From NCBI RefSeq assembly GCF_051903065.1, contig NZ_CP178438.1: a DNA stretch of 64,000 nt, one strand, 5' to 3'. Shown piece by piece: positions 21,100 to 58,785 of this stretch (positions are counted from its first letter, which is position 1; the number at the start of each line of letters is the position of its first letter). The notes under the pieces are model-generated. The model was not told the DNA's origin, did not search any database, and worked only from the letters and a program-made list of their open reading frames with translations. The translations under genes and the position numbers were made by a program. Source of the stretch: Escherichia coli. Lineage in GTDB: Bacteria; Pseudomonadota; Gammaproteobacteria; Enterobacterales; Enterobacteriaceae.

Positions 21100-21222
21100 A
21101 CGCTTTTCCTTGTGGATCTCAACTCGCCAGCACCTATCTTACATGCCGGTCCGTATCAGAGATACTTTTTGAGTGGCTTTGCCGGTGATTAAAAATCAAG
21201 GAGGGTGTAACGACAAGTTGCA

Positions 21223-21400
21223 GGCACAAAAAAACCACCCGAAGGTGGTTTCACGACACTGCTTATTGCTTTGATTTTATTCTTATCTTTCCCATGGTAC
21301 CCGGAGCGGGACTTGAACCCGCACAGCGCGAACGCCGAGGGATTTTAAATTCTACGCAGGATCAATGAGTTACATAGCAGTGCATTGCGAAACTTTGCTG
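21223..21400. repeat. att direct repeat copy 1 (host-side leuZ terminator, displaced 56-nt 3' end of tRNA-Leu at 21295-21350, and about 50 bp of shared element-end sequence)
   Basis: Near-identical to 23538-23712; the part through gggattttaaat matches 58630-58754 inside intact leuZ. Confidence 0.85.
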
Positions 21401-21630: not shown

Positions 21631-22171
21631 CTAACTCTTTCGCAGAGCGAGTGAGTAGGAATTAGTCACAACCATCGCCTCATCACAACCATAGAATGTT
21701 TTAGCAGAGATCACCTGCTGCACCGCCGAGTTACCTACAGAACCAGAATAATTTTTCGCCTGAATAACCATATCCTTACCAAATCGAGTGACGAAGAGAT
21801 CTGCCCCCTGATCTTGCGTTCTCTTGGTTTCTTTGACGTCATAGCCCATAGTCTGGAATACTTCCACAAGGAAATCTTCAAACTGGAAACCGTCCATTGC
21901 ATCAACTAAATACATGGTGACGAATTTGTTAGGGTTAAAATGTTCGAGCCGTGTAGCTAATCTATCAACCAGAATATCAAAATAAATATGTTCGCACACA
22001 GCTAAGTATTTTTTAACTTCATCAAATGAAACTAAAGGAACACCAGGCGTAGCCTCCACTTTTTCATTGAACTCTACTGATGAGAACTCTATTTTATTGC
22101 TCCATATATAGAATAGAAACAATGAAAGATCTGCCCTAAAAGTGGTACCCGCTTCCTCAATCCATGACTTC
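21631..22171 (-). pseudogene. Mrr-type restriction endonuclease domain gene, 5' end removed by IS1
   Basis: ORF 21631..22185 begins inside the IS1 left end; product has the Mrr_cat-like motif GADLFVTRFGKDMVIQAKNY (D..QxK). Confidence 0.6.
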
Positions 22172-22939
22172 GGTGATGCTGCCAACTTACTGATTTAGTG
22201 TATGATGGTGTTTTTGAGGTGCTCCAGTGGCTTCTGTTTCTATCAGCTGTCCCTCCTGTTCAGCTACTGACGGGGTGGTGCGTAACGGCAAAAGCACCGC
22301 CGGACATCAGCGCTATCTCTGCTCTCACTGCCGTAAAACATGGCAACTGCAGTTCACTTACACCGCTTCTCAACCCGGTACGCACCAGAAAATCATTGAT
22401 ATGGCCATGAATGGCGTTGGATGCCGGGCAACAGCCCGCATTATGGGCGTTGGCCTCAACACGATTTTACGTCACTTAAAAAACTCAGGCCGCAGTCGGT
22501 AACCTCGCGCATACAGCCGGGCAGTGACGTCATCGTCTGCGCGGAAATGGACGAACAGTGGGGCTATGTCGGGGCTAAATCGCGCCAGCGCTGGCTGTTT
22601 TACGCGTATGACAGGCTCCGGAAGACGGTTGTTGCGCACGTATTCGGTGAACGCACTATGGCGACGCTGGGGCGTCTTATGAGCCTGCTGTCACCCTTTG
22701 ACGTGGTGATATGGATGACGGATGGCTGGCCGCTGTATGAATCCCGCCTGAAGGGAAAGCTGCACGTAATCAGCAAGCGATATACGCAGCGAATTGAGCG
22801 GCATAACCTGAATCTGAGGCAGCACCTGGCACGGCTGGGACGGAAGTCGCTGTCGTTCTCAAAATCGGTGGAGCTGCATGACAAAGTCATCGGGCATTAT
22901 CTGAACATAAAACACTATCAATAAGTTGGAGTCATTACC
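22172..22939 (+). mobile_element. insAB: IS1 copy 1 (768 bp, insA 22227-22502, insB frame 22421-22924), no target-site duplication
   Basis: Left end ggtgatgctgccaacttactgat and right end aagttggagtcattacc; Ins[40 protein letters not shown]; flanking 9-mers differ (catgacttc vs gccgcttca). Confidence 0.95.
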
Positions 22940-23364: not shown

Positions 23365-23537
23365 AGCATTACAGTTTGCTCAGCAGGCCCCCCCTTCCCG
23401 GAAGAGTACCGGAAAACAGGCAAAGCGGCCTGGTTCTCTATGCTGGAGGCGACACGTTCAATTCGGCATTGCCAGGCTGTAGATTGCAGCTCATTGCACC
23501 CCGTGAGCACAGGATATGCACAGGGCGTGAATTGCAT

Positions 23538-23712
23538 GCACAAAAAAACCACCCGGAGGTGGTTTCACGACACTGCTTATTGCTTTGATTATTCTGATGT
23601 TTCCCATGGTACCCGGAGTGGGACTTGAACCCACACAGCGCGAACGCCGAGGGATTTTAAATTCTACGTAGGATCAATGAGTTACATAGCAGTGCATTGC
23701 GAAACTTTGCTG
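23538..23712. repeat. att direct repeat copy 2 (internal; terminator plus tRNA-Leu 3' fragment 23607-23662 with two substitutions)
   Basis: Aligns with copy 1 and copy 3; followed by element-end sequence that diverges after gaaactttgctg. Confidence 0.85.
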
Positions 23713-33371: not shown

Positions 33372-33973
<602 letters not shown>

Positions 33974-44884: not shown

Positions 44885-46021
44885 ATGCCTATTCTGGATC
44901 TGCGTTTCAGCAACAAATCACTTCACCAACTTCTACATCCCCTCACGGGTTGTCAGGAATACCGTGATATTCACTGCCAAAACCTGCGTGCTCTGGTGTA
45001 TCCCAATCGGATCACGCTGGCCTTTCGTGCCACTATAAACAATCAGCGTATATATGAAACCCTGGGTCAGTTCCCTCAGCTCTGCGTTGAGGATGCCCGT
45101 CAGCATGTGATGAAACTGCTTGCTGATAAAAATCGTCTTGCGGTTCAGTCCCGTCGATTCACTGTGGAACAGGCCATCAATGACCTGTGGCTACCGGATT
45201 TGCAGTTGTATAAAAAGAGTCCTCAGTCAGAGTTGTCAAAACTCAACCTCTACGTTCGCCCGTTCTGGGGCAAGCGGCAACTTCGCGACATCACGGCAGG
45301 AGAACTAGAACAATATGCTGCTGGCTTACGGGAAAAATTACGTCCGTCAACAGTAAACCGTATCCTCGCAATATTGTCCAAAATATGCTCTCTGGCAGTA
45401 CGTGCTGGATGGATCACGCATTCCCCGATGTCACATGTCCGCTATCTGAAAGAAAATAACATTCGCTATCGCACACTGTCAGCGACAGAAATCCCGCGCT
45501 TTATTGACGCGGCAACAGCGCTGCAAACACCGGCAGCTGATTCTATATTGCTTGCTCTTTATACGGGGATGCGTATTGGTGAGGTATGTACCCTGAAATG
45601 GGAGTACTGGCACCCGGATATGCATCAACTCATACTGCCTGATACAAAGTCCGGACACCCTTTCACCTGCCCACTTGCACCTCCAGCCATTGCAGTTGTC
45701 CAGTGCCAGCAGGACCTGATGCTCAGCAAAACTTACATTTTTCCACAACTAACCGACAATGTCCGCCCTCTGGCATATCCGCGTGCAACCTTTGCCCGTA
45801 TTTGTCGGGATGCCAACATTGATAACCTGCGGATGCATGACCTGCGCCGTACCTTTGCCACCCGGGTACTACAGGCGACCGGGGATATTGCAATCGCTTC
45901 CCATCTGCTAAATCACCATTCACTCACGGCGACCCGTCGCTACGCTTTTCACAATGCAGCGACATCACACGCAGTGGTTTCTCAGGTCATAGAAAGTTAT
46001 GACACAAAAATGAACCTATGA
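44885..46021 (+). CDS. tyrosine-type site-specific recombinase/integrase (P4-like); true start may lie upstream
   Basis: Catalytic region LYTGMRIGEV, MHDLRRTFATR (HxxR) and LNHHSLTATRRYA (Tyr). Confidence 0.85.
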   Translation: MPILDLRFSNKSLHQLLHPLTGCQEYRDIHCQNLRALVYPNRITLAFRATINNQRIYETLGQFPQLCVEDARQHVMKLLADKNRLAVQSRRFTVEQAINDLWLPDLQLYKKSPQSELSKLNLYVRPFWGKRQLRDITAGELEQYAAGLREKLRPSTVNRILAILSKICSLAVRAGWITHSPMSHVRYLKENNIRYRTLSATEIPRFIDAATALQTPAADSILLALYTGMRIGEVCTLKWEYWHPDMHQLILPDTKSGHPFTCPLAPPAIAVVQCQQDLMLSKTYIFPQLTDNVRPLAYPRATFARICRDANIDNLRMHDLRRTFATRVLQATGDIAIASHLLNHHSLTATRRYAFHNAATSHAVVSQVIESYDTKMNL

Positions 46022-46163: not shown

Positions 46164-46364
46164 ATGTATTTAACCATTAAGCAGTTTGCAGAAAGATTTA
46201 ATCTTTCCGCATCCACGGTTGCGTCAGATATATCGCGCAACCCAGGAAAACTCCCGCCCTTCATCAGAATTGGGCGGGCTATACGATTCTCTCTTGATGA
46301 TATTGTTGAGTGGGAAAATGCACATCGTCAAAACAAACTTAAAGGTGATATAAATGGTTACTAA
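46164..46364 (+). CDS. AlpA-family HTH protein (excisionase/regulator-like)
   Basis: 66-aa ORF MYLTIKQFAERFNLSASTVASDISRNPGKLPPFIRIGRAIRFSLDDIVEWE. Confidence 0.75.
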   Translation: MYLTIKQFAERFNLSASTVASDISRNPGKLPPFIRIGRAIRFSLDDIVEWENAHRQNKLKGDINGY

Positions 46365-48058
46365 GAACACAGCAAATAATGCTAATAATGCACTGAACAT
46401 TCTTCCTGAAGCAGCAAACGGCTTTGTTGAATAAATCGAACTTTTGCTGAGTTGAAGGATCAGATCACGTATCTTCCCGACAACGCAGACCGTTCCGTGG
46501 CAAAGCAAAAGTTCAAAATCACCAACTGGCCCACCTACAATAAAGCCCTCATCAACCGTGGCTCCATAACTTTCTGGCTGGATGATGAAGCTATTCAGGC
46601 CTGGTATGAGTCAGCAACACCTTCTTCACGAGGCAGACCTCAGCGCTATTCTGACCTTGCCATCACGACTGTGCTGGTCATTAAACGCGTATTCAGGCTG
46701 ACCCTGCGCGCTGCGCAGGGCTTTATTGATTCCATTTTTTCTCTGATGAACGTTCCGCTACGCTGCCCGGATTACAGCTGTGTCAGCAGGCGGGCAAAGT
46801 CGGTTAATGTCAGTTTCAAAACGCCCACCCGGGGTGAAATCGCACACCTGGTAATTGATTCCACCGGGCTGAAGGTCTTCGGTGAAGGCGAGTGGAAAGT
46901 CAAAAAGCATGGCCAGGAACGCCGCCGTATCTGGCGTAAGCTGCATCTCGCCGTTGACAGTAAAACACATGAAATCATCTGCGCTGACCTGTCGCTGAAC
47001 AACGTTACGGACTCAGAGGCCTTCCCCGGGTTAATCCGGCAAACCCACCGGAAAATCAGGTCAGCCGCCGCCGATGGCGCTTACGATACCCGGCTATGTC
47101 ACGATGAACTGCGGCGTAAGAAAATCAGCGCGCTTATCCCTCCCCGAAAAGGTGCGGGTTACTGGCCCGGTGAATATGCAGACCGTAACCGTGCAGTGGC
47201 TAATCAGCGAATGACCGGGAGTAATGCGCGGTGGAAATGGACAACAGATTACAACCGTCGCTCGATAGCGGAAACGGCGATGTACCGGGTAAAACAGCTG
47301 TTCGGGGGTTCACTGACACTGCGTGACTACGATGGTCAGGTTGCAGAGGCTATGGCCCTGGTACGAGCGCTGAACAAAATGACGAAAGCAGGTATGCCTG
47401 AAAGCGTGCGTATTGCCTGAAAACACAACCCGCTACGGGGGAGACTTACCCGAAATCTGATTTATTCAACAAAGCCGCAGCAAACACAGCTGTAGACAAC
47501 GATGAAAAATATCTGTCCTTTGCATTAGTTCTCGCTATCACGATTATGGACAACTTAGTAAAGCTCATCGGCACAGATGGCTTCGTACTTTATACCTACA
47601 CCCTGCAGGACACGGCTACTGCTCGTGCTGTTTTTAATGAATTAGCCAGGCGTCTCAAAAATTTCAATCGTCAGGAGGAGGTCTACACCACCGATTCCCT
47701 CACCTTTCGAATGAAATACATTTACGGTGTTACCCTGTTCGAACATGATAGTAAATCTATCCTTAACCTCTTTGATAAGAAGGGTTATCCGGTATTGAGT
47801 GAATCAGGAGAACCCGGTTCTCTTGATGATATGTATCTTGACATTCAAGCCCGATTACATGGCGGCTACGCCTCAAAAAAGTTTCTTCATTTACATGAAC
47901 ATTGTCTGTTATCTGCACACGTTACCCCGTCTGTGGAAAAGACGCAACGCGGTATCCTGATTAAAGTAGGCAGGAAACTCGTTTCCTTTATCCATGTAGA
48001 TGATGAATCACACAAAACCGATATTTTCAAATCTGTAGTAAATGTTATTAAATCTTGA
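46354..48058 (+). pseudogene. small ORF interrupted by IS903 after codon 22; the 3' part persists as a 170-aa ORF (47546-48058)
   Basis: ATG at 46354 (MVTKNTANNANNALNILPEAAN) runs into the IS; removing the IS and one TSD copy restores an in-frame ORF of about 212 codons ending 48058. Confidence 0.65.
46420..47476 (+). mobile_element. IS903-like element (IS5 family, 1057 bp; transposase ORF 46452-47420) with 9-bp target-site duplication
   Basis: Terminal inverted repeats ggctttgttgaataaatcg / cgatttattcaacaaagcc; 322-aa DDE transposase ORF; TSD gcagcaaac at 46411-46419 and 47477-47485. Confidence 0.9.
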
Positions 48059-48066
48059 TTCTTTAT

Positions 48067-48094
48067 GCCGGGACACAGCTCCCGGCATTTTTTC
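48067..48094 (+). terminator. hairpin plus T-run between the interrupted ORF and the polymerase gene (terminator or attenuator)
   Basis: Stem gccggga/tcccggc followed by attttttc, 11 bp before the RBS and ATG at 48105. Confidence 0.45.
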
Positions 48095-48104
48095 GGAGTT
48101 AACT

Positions 48105-50705
48105 ATGAGCAATAATTTGCAGGACATCCTCGCTGCCGCCTCGGGGTATCAGTCCGTGACTTCAGAGCCAGCGTTCAATCGTAAAAGACCTAAAACGCTT
48201 GATGATTATCCTGTGATACCACCTGCATCAAAAAAAGTATCTGTTATTTCAAGTGACCTGACACTCCATATCGGTTTTGATACCGAATATGTTTTCAACC
48301 CTGAAACACGACAGAATGATATTCTGTCATATCAGAGTTATGTTGTCTTACCCGATAATACAGGTATATCGAACATTATCTATCCACCTGACTCACAGAA
48401 AAAATCCCGGCTGTCTTTTAAGGAATTTCTCTGTCAAACGATTACACCGCTTCTTGAAACGGGTGTGATTACAAAATGGCCCGGTATTATTAATATATAT
48501 GCGCATTTCATTCGTGCGGATATCGCCTCCTTTGCCAATTTCTGGTCAGACTACAAAATTCTTCTGAAAGGAATACGCGGTACTGTCAGCAGCTTCAAAA
48601 ATCGTTACGGTATCGATTTTGATGAACAGCAGGAACGTCGCGTAAAGACTGAACAGATAATGTTTGACAAACGAACTTCCCCTCCGCGTTGCAGTAACGT
48701 AGCTTTCATCGATACACTGCTTATCACTCCCGGGGGTATGGGTCTGGCTGAATGTGGTGAATTACTGGGTCTTCCCAAACTCACCATTCCTGCACCTTAT
48801 TCCATAACCAATATGCGTGAATATCTTCTGGGCGACAGAGCAGGGTTTGAAGCCTATGCTCTGCGGGATGCCGAGATTGCGGTTCGTTATGCTTTACAGG
48901 TTCGCAATTTTTGCGCCCGGGAGCTGATGATTGATCGTGTCCCCGCCACCATCGGGGCGATGGCAGTTTCACGGTTCACCAAAACACTTAAAGAAAACAA
49001 TATGTCTCCTGAAGTCTGCCTTGGGACACACATTAAAACCCGTGAACTCTGGCTCACGGAGAAACAGGCATTCCGGACGATTAAAAACCCCGCCAGTGTT
49101 CCTTCAAGAGAGTTGTTTGAAACGTTCCCGATCAACTGTTACCACGGCGGACGCAATGAGTGTTTTATGATGGGGGTTACACCGTCTGATCACTGGTATG
49201 ACTACGATCTGGCTGGAGCGTATACCACCGGGCTATTAGATATCCTCACACCCGATTACGGGAACATCCGCCTCAGTAAAAATCCGGACGATTACTGTGG
49301 GCATGTAATGGGATTTGCGCTTGTCACATTTCGGTTCCCGGAATCAGTTCCCTATCCCAGCCTGCCGGTTCGGACCGATCAATATGGGTTATTCTTTCCA
49401 TTAAGTGGCGAATCATGGGCAACGGCACCTGAAATCGAACTTGCTCTGTCGCTCGGGGCAGAGATGACGATCCATAATGGGATCATCGTCCCCTGGATCT
49501 GTGACACCTCCCCACATAACAGCGAATCAACATCGGTGTTTCTTCCCTTTGTTCAACAGGTCCGTGAGAACCGTAATCGCCATATTAAAGGTTCTCTGGA
49601 GGAGAAATTCTGGAAAGAAATTGGCAACTCGCTTTATGGCAAACTTGCTCAGGGCCTTCGCGCCAAAACCGCCTTTGATACTGCCCGTGGATTAAACAGA
49701 TCCCTCCCACCATCATCGGTTACTCAGCCATTCTTTGCTGCGCATGTGACGGGATTTATCCGCGCCGTTGTCGGGGAACTCATGAATGCTTTGCCTTCTG
49801 ATTCATCGGTTGTCAGCGTCACAACCGATGGTTTTTTGACAAATTGCCCACTTGACAAGATAAACATGAGCGGTCCACTGTCTTCCCGCTTCCAGTCGCT
49901 GTGCGATATTGTTGATCCGGGTTCATCAATGTTGACATGTAAGCATGAGGTCAGCCAGCTTATCGCCATGAAAACCCGGGGGCAGTTAACCTATAGAGCT
50001 ATTCAGGGAAAACCTGTTGTTCATGCCAGGGCTGGCGTCAAACCTCCTGCCGATATTCCACGCAGTGACTATAACGACTATATGGTAGATCTTTACCTTA
50101 ATCGTTTACCCGGTCAGACGTTATCCCGAAGTACGTTGATATCAACGCGTGAGATGTGGCTCTCGGAAAGCGATCTGGTATCCCGGGAACAGGATATCCG
50201 TCTTAATCTGGAATTCGATTTCAAACGCCAGCCCGTACAGCCCGCCATGAATGAAGGGCATTTACTGATGTTTTCCCGCCCGTGGGATAATATGGAAGAG
50301 GCTCTGCAGCAACGCTCTCTTTTCGACGACTGGCGGCAAACGCATACACTGAAGACCCTGGCTGACTGGGATGACTGGTGTGATTTTCTCTATTGCCGGA
50401 CGGTGTTTTCTGATATGAAACTAAAAGTCGGAAGCAAACGTAGTGATGATATTTTAGTCAGACTATTTCTCCGGGCGCTGACTCAGTGCCAATGGGGGCT
50501 GATGCTGAAAGATAAAAAAAGTTATTCCTGTAAAGAGGTTGCTGAATGGCTGACGTCAGAAGGCTATTCAGTAACGGTGACTGATGTAAAAAATGCGGTA
50601 AGAGCAAAAATACCCCAAATGAAATTTAGTTCTGTAACACCGCGAATGAAGTCACTGATGGATATCATAGCCCGTAAATATCCGACATTCTGTCTTCCAG
50701 TCTGA
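48105..50705 (+). CDS. family-B DNA polymerase with piPolB-like motifs (pipolin primer-independent PolB)
   Basis: Exo I in LHIGFDTEYVF; YALRD (Exo III-like); KTRG in AMKTRGQLTY; motif B KEIGNSLYGKLAQ; motif C SVTTDGFL; RBS ggag before ATG 48105. Confidence 0.8.
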   Translation: MSNNLQDILAAASGYQSVTSEPAFNRKRPKTLDDYPVIPPASKKVSVISSDLTLHIGFDTEYVFNPETRQNDILSYQSYVVLPDNTGISNIIYPPDSQKKSRLSFKEFLCQTITPLLETGVITKWPGIINIYAHFIRADIASFANFWSDYKILLKGIRGTVSSFKNRYGIDFDEQQERRVKTEQIMFDKRTSPPRCSNVAFIDTLLITPGGMGLAECGELLGLPKLTIPAPYSITNMREYLLGDRAGFEAYALRDAEIAVRYALQVRNFCARELMIDRVPATIGAMAVSRFTKTLKENNMSPEVCLGTHIKTRELWLTEKQAFRTIKNPASVPSRELFETFPINCYHGGRNECFMMGVTPSDHWYDYDLAGAYTTGLLDILTPDYGNIRLSKNPDDYCGHVMGFALVTFRFPESVPYPSLPVRTDQYGLFFPLSGESWATAPEIELALSLGAEMTIHNGIIVPWICDTSPHNSESTSVFLPFVQQVRENRNRHIKGSLEEKFWKEIGNSLYGKLAQGLRAKTAFDTARGLNRSLPPSSVTQPFFAAHVTGFIRAVVGELMNALPSDSSVVSVTTDGFLTNCPLDKINMSGPLSSRFQSLCDIVDPGSSMLTCKHEVSQLIAMKTRGQLTYRAIQGKPVVHARAGVKPPADIPRSDYNDYMVDLYLNRLPGQTLSRSTLISTREMWLSESDLVSREQDIRLNLEFDFKRQPVQPAMNEGHLLMFSRPWDNMEEALQQRSLFDDWRQTHTLKTLADWDDWCDFLYCRTVFSDMKLKVGSKRSDDILVRLFLRALTQCQWGLMLKDKKSYSCKEVAEWLTSEGYSVTVTDVKNAVRAKIPQMKFSSVTPRMKSLMDIIARKYPTFCLPV

Positions 50706-50753: not shown

Positions 50754-51080
50754 TCACAGGCAATCGGCATCAAAACAGTGAAATAACTGCCGCGCGTCAG
50801 GATGGCCATTTACATGATAGATCCGCATGGCATGACAGGTGATACTCTGGAGATTAGCCGCCAGCCTTTTCCCCATATTCACCAGTATGCCGTGTGGTAT
50901 TTTACTGCTTGTACTGTTTACTGTCAGAGTAAAACAATTTGTTTCAACGCTGACCTCAATAAAATCATTTCCAAATAATGTACCGACAACCTGCCTGATT
51001 GTTTCTTCATAATCTGTCAGATCAATGACATCACGCCATCTCGCATTTACGAGTTGATACTTTCTGATATGTAAATACAT
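50754..51080 (-). CDS. hypothetical protein (108 aa)
   Basis: ORF MYLHIRKYQLVNARWRDVIDLTDYEETIRQ; divergent from the WYL regulator gene; no recognisable motif. Confidence 0.45.
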   Translation of the reverse strand: MYLHIRKYQLVNARWRDVIDLTDYEETIRQVVGTLFGNDFIEVSVETNCFTLTVNSTSSKIPHGILVNMGKRLAANLQSITCHAMRIYHVNGHPDARQLFHCFDADCL

Positions 51081-53317: not shown

Positions 53318-54085
53318 GGTGATGCTGCCAACTTACTGATTTAGTGTATGATGGTGTTTTTGAGGTGCTCCAGTGGCTTCTGTTTCTATCAGCTGTCCCT
53401 CCTGTTCAGCTACTGAAGGCGTGGTGCGTAACGGTAAAAGTACTGCCGGACATCAGCGCTATCTCTGCTCTCACTGCCGTAAAACATGGCAACTGCAGTT
53501 CACTTACACCGCTTCTCAACCCGGTACGCACCAGAAAATCATTGATATGGCCATGAATGGCGTTGGATGCCGGGCAACCGCCCGCATTATGAGCGTTGGC
53601 CTCAACACGATTTTCCGCCATTTAAAAAACTCAGGCCGCAGTCGGTAACCTCGCGCATACAGCCGGGCAGTGACGTCATCGTCTGCGCGGAAATGGACGA
53701 ACAGTGGGGCTATGTCGGGGCTAAATCGCGCCAGCGCTGGCTGTTTTACGCGTATGACAGGCTCCGGAAGACGGTTGTTGCGCACGTATTCGGTGAACGC
53801 ACTATGGCGACGCTGGGGCGTCTTATGAGCCTGCTGTCACCCTTTGACGTGGTGATATGGATGACGGATGGCTGGCCGCTGTATGAATCCCGCCTGAAGG
53901 GAAAGCTGCACGTAATCAGCAAGCGATATACGCAGCGAATTGAGCGGCATAACCTGAATCTGAGGCAGCACCTGGCACGGCTGGGACGGAAGTCGCTGTC
54001 GTTCTCAAAATCGGTGGAGCTGCATGACAAAGTCATCGGGCATTATCTGAACATAAAACACTATCAATAAGTTGGAGTCATTACC
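53318..54085 (+). mobile_element. insAB: IS1 copy (768 bp; insA 53373-53648, insB frame 53567-54070) with 9-bp target-site duplication
   Basis: IS1 terminal repeats; TSD ttgatatgg at 53309-53317 and 54086-54094; InsA differs from copy 1 at a few residues. Confidence 0.95.
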
Positions 54086-58457: not shown

Positions 58458-58629
58458 AGCATTACAACTTGCTCAGCAGGCCCCCCTTCCCGGAAGAGTA
58501 CCGGAAAACAGGCAAAGCGGCCTGGTTCTCTATGCTGGAGGCGACACGTTCAATTCGGCATTGCCAGGCTGTAGATTGCAGCTCATTGCACCCCGTGCGC
58601 ACAGGATATGCACAGGGCGTGAATTGCAT

Positions 58630-58754
58630 GCACAAAAAAACCACCCGAAGGTGGTTTCACGACACTGCTTATTGCTTTGATTATTCTGATGTTTCCCATG
58701 GTACCCGGAGCGGGACTTGAACCCGCACAGCGCGAACGCCGAGGGATTTTAAAT
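58630..58754. repeat. att direct repeat copy 3 (element-borne terminator plus the 3' 56 nt of intact leuZ)
   Basis: Matches copies 1 and 2 through gggattttaaat, after which the intact tRNA continues. Confidence 0.85.
58634..58657 (-). terminator. Rho-independent terminator of the glyW-cysT-leuZ operon (also present in att copies 1 and 2)
   Basis: Minus-strand hairpin aaccacc-ttcg-ggtggtt followed by ttttttt. Confidence 0.75.
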
Positions 58755-58785
58755 CCCTTGTGTCTACCGATTCCACCATCCGGGC
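58699..58785 (-). tRNA. leuZ: tRNA-Leu (UAA anticodon)
   Basis: Reverse complement reads GCCCGGATGGTGGAATCGGTAGACACAAGGGATTTAAAATCCC...CTCCGGGTACCA (87 nt, CCA end). Confidence 0.95.

Follow-up and report, generated by a model that had tools for sequence, protein, structure and literature searches.

Pipolins have been described as a class of island, and IS903B is a well-known disruptor of genes. The pipolin polymerase, piPolB, has as its hallmarks a PolC motif of the form SxTTDG, in which Thr replaces the first Asp, and a KH-X8-KTRG signature that replaces KxY (PMC5695915). In the available text of PMC11551731, the core of gammaproteobacterial pipolins is described as comprising IntSXT-type and IntP2-type tyrosine recombinases, an excisionase, a WYL protein and a DUF2787 protein. 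Enterobacterial pipolins are there given a bimodular architecture with a core model that includes '2 orphan proteins' (PMC11551731), and the gene upstream of piPolB is neither singled out nor characterised in that part of the text. Elements of the IS903/IS903B type are known by their length, 18-bp terminal inverted repeats, 9-bp target site duplication and single 307-aa DDE transposase. Disruptions of mgrB by IS903B in Klebsiella are well documented (PMC8796155, PMC10513040).

Here, we have analyzed a stretch of 64,000 nucleotides of Escherichia coli DNA (hereafter the window), in which both of these systems occur together. Taken as a whole, the locus is explained with high probability by a recent transposition of IS903B into a conserved gene for a 212-aa protein without a known family (the orphan gene), at codon 22/23; the gene belongs to the core module of a pipolin. 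All of the properties of IS903/IS903B listed above are matched in the present copy. The element itself is no different from known IS903B, and what is new is its target. The event is of the same kind as the mgrB disruptions in Klebsiella, that is, an ordinary recent knock-out by an insertion sequence with no new mechanism.

The pipolin and its core module

The island has a size of approximately 35 kb and is bounded by att-like repeats and a tRNA-Leu gene. Its main features, apart from the interrupted gene, are as follows.

44885-46021, + strand: IntP2-type integrase of the core, a tyrosine recombinase (Pfam Phage_integrase, E=4e-21; RefSeq annotation), syntenic in all related loci
46164-46364, + strand: HTH_17 (AlpA/excisionase-like) gene (Pfam HTH_17, E=6e-9)
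48105-50705, + strand: piPolB (primer-independent family-B DNA polymerase), intact, 866 aa
51460-52362: WYL/WCX regulator (Pfam)
53318-54085: IS1, with further IS1 copies near the left end
58699-58785: tRNA-Leu(taa) gene (UAA anticodon)
58500-58754, 23408-23662 (98.4%, 255 bp) and 21218-21350: att-like direct repeats

Within the core module the order is IntP2-type integrase, AlpA-like HTH gene, orphan gene and piPolB. The polymerase carries D59/E61, D368, TTDG at position 573, KH at 613-614 and KTRG at 623; the residues matching these are those mutated in the characterised piPolB of E. coli 3-373-03_S1_C2, and the motifs define the family (PMC5695915). It differs from piPolB of E. coli strain 203740 by 2 amino acids. 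The cargo of the island includes Hhe, two DUF262 genes, a type I restriction-modification (R-M) system, two tyrosine recombinases, WYL, DUF726 and DUF2787, and the DUF2787 gene and a second site-specific integrase are annotated in the identical RefSeq region.

The island is thus an E. coli pipolin at tRNA-Leu, every feature that was tested having been found. It resembles E. coli pipolins, for which strain 3-373-03_S1_C2 serves as reference, in its tRNA-Leu site, att-like repeats and piPolB motifs, and in having an integrase of the IntP2 type and an excisionase-like gene close to piPolB. The genes for WYL and DUF2787, the defence cargo (Hhe and type I R-M) and the IntSXT-type integrase, which lies at the tRNA end, are shared as well. 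Compared with these references, the additional parts of the present copy are IS903B in the orphan gene, the IS1 at 53318-54085 and the IS1 near the left end.

IS903B in the gene upstream of piPolB

The interrupted gene and the inserted element are composed of the following parts.

46354-46419, + strand: 5' fragment of the orphan gene, codons 1-22, with its ATG at 46354, a Shine-Dalgarno sequence (AGGTGA) upstream and an N-terminus conserved in homologs
46411-46419: left copy of the target site duplication, GCAGCAAAC, a sequence present only once in strain 203740, where the site is empty
46420-47476, + strand: IS903B (IS5 family, IS903 group), 1057 bp, with inverted repeats at 46420-46437 (IRL) and 47459-47476 (IRR)
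46497-47420, + strand: DDE transposase gene of IS903B, 307 aa, GTG start
47477-47485: right copy of the target site duplication, GCAGCAAAC
47486-48058, + strand: 3' part of the interrupted gene (codons 23-212 and stop), with Met43 (ATG at 47546) as its sole possible start

The terminal inverted repeats of the element are a perfect 18 bp, GGCTTTGTTGAATAAATC, matching at 18 of 18 positions between the two ends, and a 9-bp match at the fixed positions flanking the element has a chance probability of about 4e-6. The transposase frame is open throughout (Pfam DDE_Tnp_1_5, E=3e-40; DDE_Tnp_1, E=7e-33), with its start set by matching the RefSeq CDS of strain 23CRST027. The signature of cut-and-paste transposition is therefore present in full: 1057 bp, 18-bp inverted repeats and a 9-bp duplication. 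Many plasmid copies match the element with 100% identity over all of its 1057 bp, and PGAP annotates their transposase as 'IS5-like element IS903B family transposase'; the plasmids bearing these identical copies are enterobacterial. Because of this identity to annotated copies, the element should be regarded as IS903B proper rather than as merely IS903-like. It occurs as a single copy within the 64-kb window, by which a composite transposon was ruled out.

When 46354-46419 is joined to 47486-48058, an ORF of 639 nt is obtained, encoding 212 aa and a stop. The reconstructed gene is identical at 639 of 639 nt to an intact allele that many E. coli chromosomes carry uninterrupted. The RefSeq annotation of strain 203740 has this very CDS of 639 nt as the hypothetical protein WP_000256731.1, flanked by the gene for an HTH regulator on one side and that for a 'DNA polymerase' on the other. 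The alignment of the window with this strain ends at 46419 and restarts at 47477 with a 9-bp overlap, which corresponds to the single target copy of the empty site. IS903B would thus have landed at codon 22/23 of the gene for WP_000256731.1, duplicating 9 bp, and the donor would have been either a plasmid or one of the sites in the host chromosome described below.

These results bear out the first-pass annotation of this DNA, which had described a 1057-bp IS903-like element with a perfect 9-bp duplication lying 22 codons into an ORF that starts at 46354, and had predicted that removal of the element and one duplicate copy would leave an in-frame ORF of about 212 codons ending at 48058. The boundaries, the ATG, the 22 codons and the duplication on both sides all held on measurement, the identity of the element was sharpened to IS903B, and the uninterrupted allele whose search had been proposed was found in relatives and is annotated in RefSeq. 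The same annotation had called the insertion recent and clean, and this was upheld as well: the duplication is perfect, the flanks equal the intact allele, the element equals circulating copies and the junction is restricted to a single lineage, all of which indicates a recent insertion.

With regard to this last point, the left junction (46270-46570) was fully matched in 2 of 5,426 complete E. coli genomes, those of 23CRST027 and 23CRST031, which are human faecal isolates of one collection from Ecuador. An alignment of 37.7 kb between the window and 23CRST027 shows 99.995% identity, without mismatches and with 2 gaps. Each of the two chromosomes has 20 places that match the junction probe, 151 bp of which are IS903B sequence. 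As judged from these matches, the data indicate that the insertion probably lies in a lineage where IS903B has multiplied.

Two other explanations of the interrupted frame need to be weighed against a recent transposition into a functional gene. Repeats such as the roughly 20 probe-matching places in the host lineage can mislead assemblers, and a copy of the element might have been misplaced in this way. However, the perfect 9-bp duplication, the exactness of both junctions and the occurrence of an identical junction in two separately assembled complete genomes leave an assembly artefact with a negligible probability. It could also be supposed that the true start of the orphan gene is Met43, so that IS903B would lie in an untranslated leader and a 170-aa protein would still be made. 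RefSeq indeed lists the 170-aa product as a normal CDS in 23CRST027, and residues 1-10 are disordered in the structural model of the full protein. On the other hand, the N-terminus is kept in all full-length homologs, including relatives of 70%, 50%, 35% and 31% identity, the dN/dS of codons 1-42 is approximately 0.16 compared with 0.23 for the remainder of the gene (against the allele of 70% identity), and a 2-codon indel within the N-terminal stretch preserves the frame. Met43 itself is Ile in one homolog (P0011) and absent from distant relatives, a Shine-Dalgarno sequence stands before Met1 and none before Met43, and residues 23-43 are confidently predicted strands. We consider a start at Met43 very improbable and, on this evidence, essentially refuted. 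The orphan is a genuine gene from Met1, and the 22-codon stretch, which the first-pass annotation had recognized might not be part of the same gene, belongs to it.

Relatives and predicted fold of the orphan protein

A match to the orphan gene was detected in 280 of the 5,426 complete E. coli genomes, of which 272 covered at least 80% of the query, a number that includes the two IS903B-bearing genomes, as their 3' fragment alone covers 90%. It co-occurs nearly always with piPolB in E. coli (280 genomes with the orphan and 295 with piPolB). In protein databases, 14 hits were found in an index of 5.8 billion proteins and 18 among 1.84 billion representatives; apart from two entries (P0028 and P0030), these comprised variants of the E. 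coli type, fragments and three distant relatives of full length. P0028 and P0030 are much longer proteins with multi-stretch matches to the orphan. A scan of 100,044 species genomes showed the family to be confined to Enterobacteriaceae, with identities of approximately 90% in Citrobacter and approximately 31% in Intestinirhabdus, Buttiauxella and Enterobacter.

The order integrase, HTH_17, orphan, piPolB was found in 11 out of 11 related loci, which span five genera (Escherichia, Citrobacter, Intestinirhabdus, Buttiauxella and Enterobacter). The last 11 nt of the HTH_17 gene overlap the start of the orphan gene, and this 11-nt overlap is conserved in a related locus (L003). Because the orphan always lies directly upstream of piPolB, we infer that it works with piPolB or in pipolin maintenance. 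This agrees with the first-pass annotation, in which the gene was thought to be polymerase-associated; it is synteny that suggests a role as an accessory to the polymerase.

The orphan is less well conserved than its surroundings. In a Citrobacter locus (L010) the identities are 99% for the integrase, 100% for the xis-like gene, 99% for piPolB and 90% for the orphan, and in Buttiauxella they are 71% for piPolB and 31% for the orphan. The dN of the orphan is 2-13 times that of piPolB, with an ω of 0.2-0.4. By these estimates, the orphan is diverging faster than its neighbouring genes. Within Enterobacteriaceae it is the gene most consistently found directly upstream of piPolB, one without a known family and evolving faster than the genes around it.

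Searches of the orphan against Pfam, PHROGs, PADLOC and PDB sequence profiles returned no named family; a Pfam search of the query up to an E-value of 10, and a comparison of 8 aligned members with LytTR, gave no match. The two large protein searches likewise led to no named family, what they returned being close or syntenic relatives. An AlphaFold2 model built from an alignment of 8 sequences was usable (pLDDT 77, pTM 0.62) and predicted three modules, each a β-meander plus helix. The first module was modelled confidently, and residues 23-43 form strands in a block with pLDDT >90. Fold searches with this model returned weak matches to the LytTR DNA-binding domain and to PH-like β-sandwiches, with TM-scores of only approximately 0.3-0.55. 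A phage 'DNA binding regulator' (E=8.5e-4) was also returned as a weak match. In comparison with the LytTR domain, the orphan has no sequence-level similarity and three modules rather than one domain. Since no membership was found at the sequence level, the model provides a lead only, namely that the protein could be LytTR/PH-like and possibly nucleic-acid- or protein-binding.

Rather speculatively, and with a probability that we would place on the low side, the orphan might be a dedicated partner of piPolB, either a LytTR/PH-like factor, binding DNA or protein, by which the primer-independent polymerase is guided or held back on pipolin DNA, or a determinant of specificity or immunity that evolves fast; rapid divergence relative to the neighbouring genes would fit the latter idea. 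As purified piPolB is active in vitro without additional protein factors (PMC5695915), the orphan is therefore not needed for catalysis.

Consequences of the insertion

Following the insertion, the 5' part of the gene encodes Met1-Asn22 followed by GFVE, with a TAA stop inside the left inverted repeat, giving a peptide of 26 aa. In the frame of the 3' part, no ATG, GTG or TTG is present between the preceding stop and Met43. With no other start in frame, the 170-aa remnant from Met43 is the only possible product, and the orphan would be reduced to the 26-aa peptide and this remnant. Because the remnant has no ribosome-binding site and lacks three core β-strands of the first module (residues 23-43), loss of function is likely, and we infer from sequence and model that IS903B has probably inactivated the gene.

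The orphan gene has also been disrupted elsewhere. In E. coli O145 strain RM9873-C1, an IS629-like element of the IS3 family, 1310 bp in length, interrupts it at nt 481, with a 3-bp overlap and in the opposite orientation, and a second O145 strain, 12E115 (H127), has the same break at nt 481, with two places. Like the IS903B case, this is an independent, duplication-flanked disruption of the orphan in a pipolin. It differs from that case in family (IS3), length (1310 bp), duplication (3 bp), position (nt 481), orientation and host lineage, and the O145 pipolin is more degraded than the IS903B-bearing one. In addition, frameshifted variants of 179 aa, in which one A has been lost from an A6 run near 47880, account for approximately 64 member sequences. 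Considering the independent IS629-like disruption and these frameshifted alleles, loss of the orphan appears to be tolerated in integrated pipolins, where it may be dispensable. Such tolerance fits the independence of piPolB from other protein factors in vitro (PMC5695915), and it makes an essential role of the orphan in polymerase function less probable.

The effect on the polymerase gene itself depends on the short region in between, which contains one further feature.

48065-48094, + strand: terminator-like hairpin with a 9-bp GC-rich stem (hairpin 48065-48088) and T6, between the orphan stop and the piPolB ribosome-binding site (GGAG)

The orphan stop and the piPolB ATG at 48105 are separated by 46 nt; the 47 bp given in the first-pass annotation is the same distance counted from the last base of the stop to the A of the ATG, and the hairpin plus T-run that it placed just after the ORF was found at 48065-48088 followed by TTTTTT. 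In L003, a 77%-identical allele at the nucleotide level, the hairpin at 48065-48094 is conserved, pairing being maintained as G·U after an A-to-G change. Three other, distant loci (L006, L007 and L009) have a hairpin at the same position with another sequence and no T-run. Given that the terminator-like hairpin separates piPolB from upstream transcription with or without the element, expression of piPolB would probably be little affected or modestly down-regulated by IS903B.

Stronger effects in either direction can be envisaged. Read-through of the 3' fragment, starting at the transposase promoter or at an outward promoter in the right end of the element, might raise piPolB expression; outward promoters of the element had also been considered in the first-pass annotation. 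The transposase gene, the disrupted orphan and piPolB all share one orientation (+), which makes read-through possible, and no strong terminator lies between the transposase stop and the right inverted repeat. Experiments on Paracoccus elements of the IS903 group did reveal outward promoters in their terminal parts (PMC3281130), but these are distant relatives from another bacterial class, and our literature search found none for IS903B itself. A consensus scan likewise returned no sigma-70-like site, and hence no outward or hybrid promoter, near the right end of the element or across the junction, and the 9-bp GC-rich hairpin with T6 would stand between IS903B and the piPolB ribosome-binding site; an upward effect is thus improbable. 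Alternatively, if the integrase, xis-like, orphan and piPolB genes formed one operon, the 1-kb insertion would be polar, piPolB expression would be lowered and the pipolin would be doubly crippled, with the orphan lost and less polymerase made. The spacing of these genes is tight, with the 11-nt overlap of the xis-like and orphan genes and the 46-nt gap before piPolB; no promoter-like site was seen on the + strand between 47500 and 48105, and a terminator-like palindrome lies inside IS903B (46702-46720). Against this, the hairpin directly before piPolB, which is conserved in position and followed by a T-run in the E. coli type, speaks for an insulation or attenuation of piPolB from upstream transcription that exists already, and a simple promoter scan is insensitive. 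We consider polarity on piPolB less likely than not. Judged from these sequence features, polar down-regulation appears at least as plausible as an upward effect. A piPolB-specific promoter in the 3' end of the orphan was also looked for, by eye and by scan, and nothing convincing was seen.

Strains 23CRST027 and 23CRST031 provide a clean natural knock-out beside an intact polymerase, which can be compared with approximately 270 E. coli genomes in which the orphan is unsplit. Among the close relatives, 23CRST025 has an intact copy at 99.5% identity. Such a comparison bears on the effect of the orphan on polymerase expression and on pipolin excision, replication and maintenance. If the protein were indeed a partner of piPolB, these two IS903B strains together with the O145 strains carrying the IS629-like element would be natural knock-outs for the role of the polymerase in pipolins. 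It should also be noted, as a point of annotation, that RefSeq does not mark the 170-aa remnant (WP_249824315.1) as a pseudogene but lists it like any other protein.

Divergence and disrupted alleles of the orphan gene

The reconstructed orphan gene of the window (46354-48058), which encodes the 212-aa protein WP_000256731.1, was compared with its counterparts in the Citrobacter locus L010 and in the related loci L003 and L012-L016. It evolves much faster than the flanking integrase, xis-like and piPolB genes: in one example, orphan proteins shared 90% amino-acid identity where their neighbours were 99-100% identical. The dN of the orphan was 2-13 times that of piPolB, with ω values of 0.2-0.4, and dS was also locally raised at this gene. 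This pattern of sequence divergence suggests relaxed or diversifying pressure on the orphan, or local recombination.

The same gene was also found to be independently disrupted at nt 481 in E. coli O145 RM9873-C1 (L017, 6482-7791), by an IS629-like element of the IS3 family, 1310 bp long and flanked by a 3-bp duplication. The pipolin in this strain was more degraded: its integrase is truncated, and another IS3 copy lies upstream. In addition, the 179-aa orphan variants P0009, P0011 and P0012 (∼64 member sequences) were frameshifted by the loss of one A, and represent either pseudogene alleles or sequencing errors. The run concerned lies here in the window:

∼47875-47885, A6 run hit by the loss of one A, orphan codons ∼152-154

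In E. coli SLK172, which belongs to another lineage, an IS3-family transposase was observed within the piPolB gene itself (NZ_CP017631.1, 2974584-2978497; match H59); therefore, the window is not the only case of IS insertion in the pipolin core.

As for the IS903B-split allele, RefSeq (record L002) does not mark its 3' remnant as a pseudogene fragment but lists it under WP_249824315.1, like any other 'hypothetical protein':

47546-48058 (L002 21276-21788), 170-aa 3' remnant of the orphan

The IS903B transposase is flagged as 'frameshifted' in the same record, and its frame is open in the window; two single-base gaps separate the two sequences.

Structures on either side of piPolB

A GC-rich hairpin directly follows the orphan stop, 5' of the piPolB start. 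Its position was kept across five elements, whereas its sequence was not, and among these five a T-run after the hairpin was present only in the E. coli-type copies. The hairpin may control piPolB, either as an attenuator or as a structure at the mRNA end.

Window 48065-48094, GC-rich hairpin
L003 8643-8696, GC-rich hairpin
L006 2356-2411, GC-rich hairpin
L007 6634-6705, GC-rich hairpin
L009 6601-6668, GC-rich hairpin

A second orphan, encoded on the opposite strand, directly follows piPolB:

50754-51080, - strand, 108-aa orphan

Its placement is conserved in several of the related loci (L003, L007 and L010-L012), but Buttiauxella-type elements lack it. Apart from a negligible PADLOC match to HamB (E=0.003), no family could be assigned to it.

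IS1 copies and the left end of the pipolin

IS1 sequences were located in the window, and the tRNA-Leu region was found to have three, not two, att-like direct repeats:

21218-21350, att-like direct repeat
22170-22939, full IS1, between the two left att-like repeats
23408-23662, att-like direct repeat
33598-33973, partial IS1 (remnant), cargo region
53318-54085, IS1 copy of 768 bp, between the DUF726 and DUF2787 genes of the pipolin core
58500-58754, att-like direct repeat

The third repeat, the full IS1 between the left repeats and the IS1 remnant in the cargo show that the pipolin has a composite or rearranged left end. In the core, alignment with the uninterrupted strain 203740 revealed a 9-bp overlap at the 768-bp copy, which is the IS1 target duplication.
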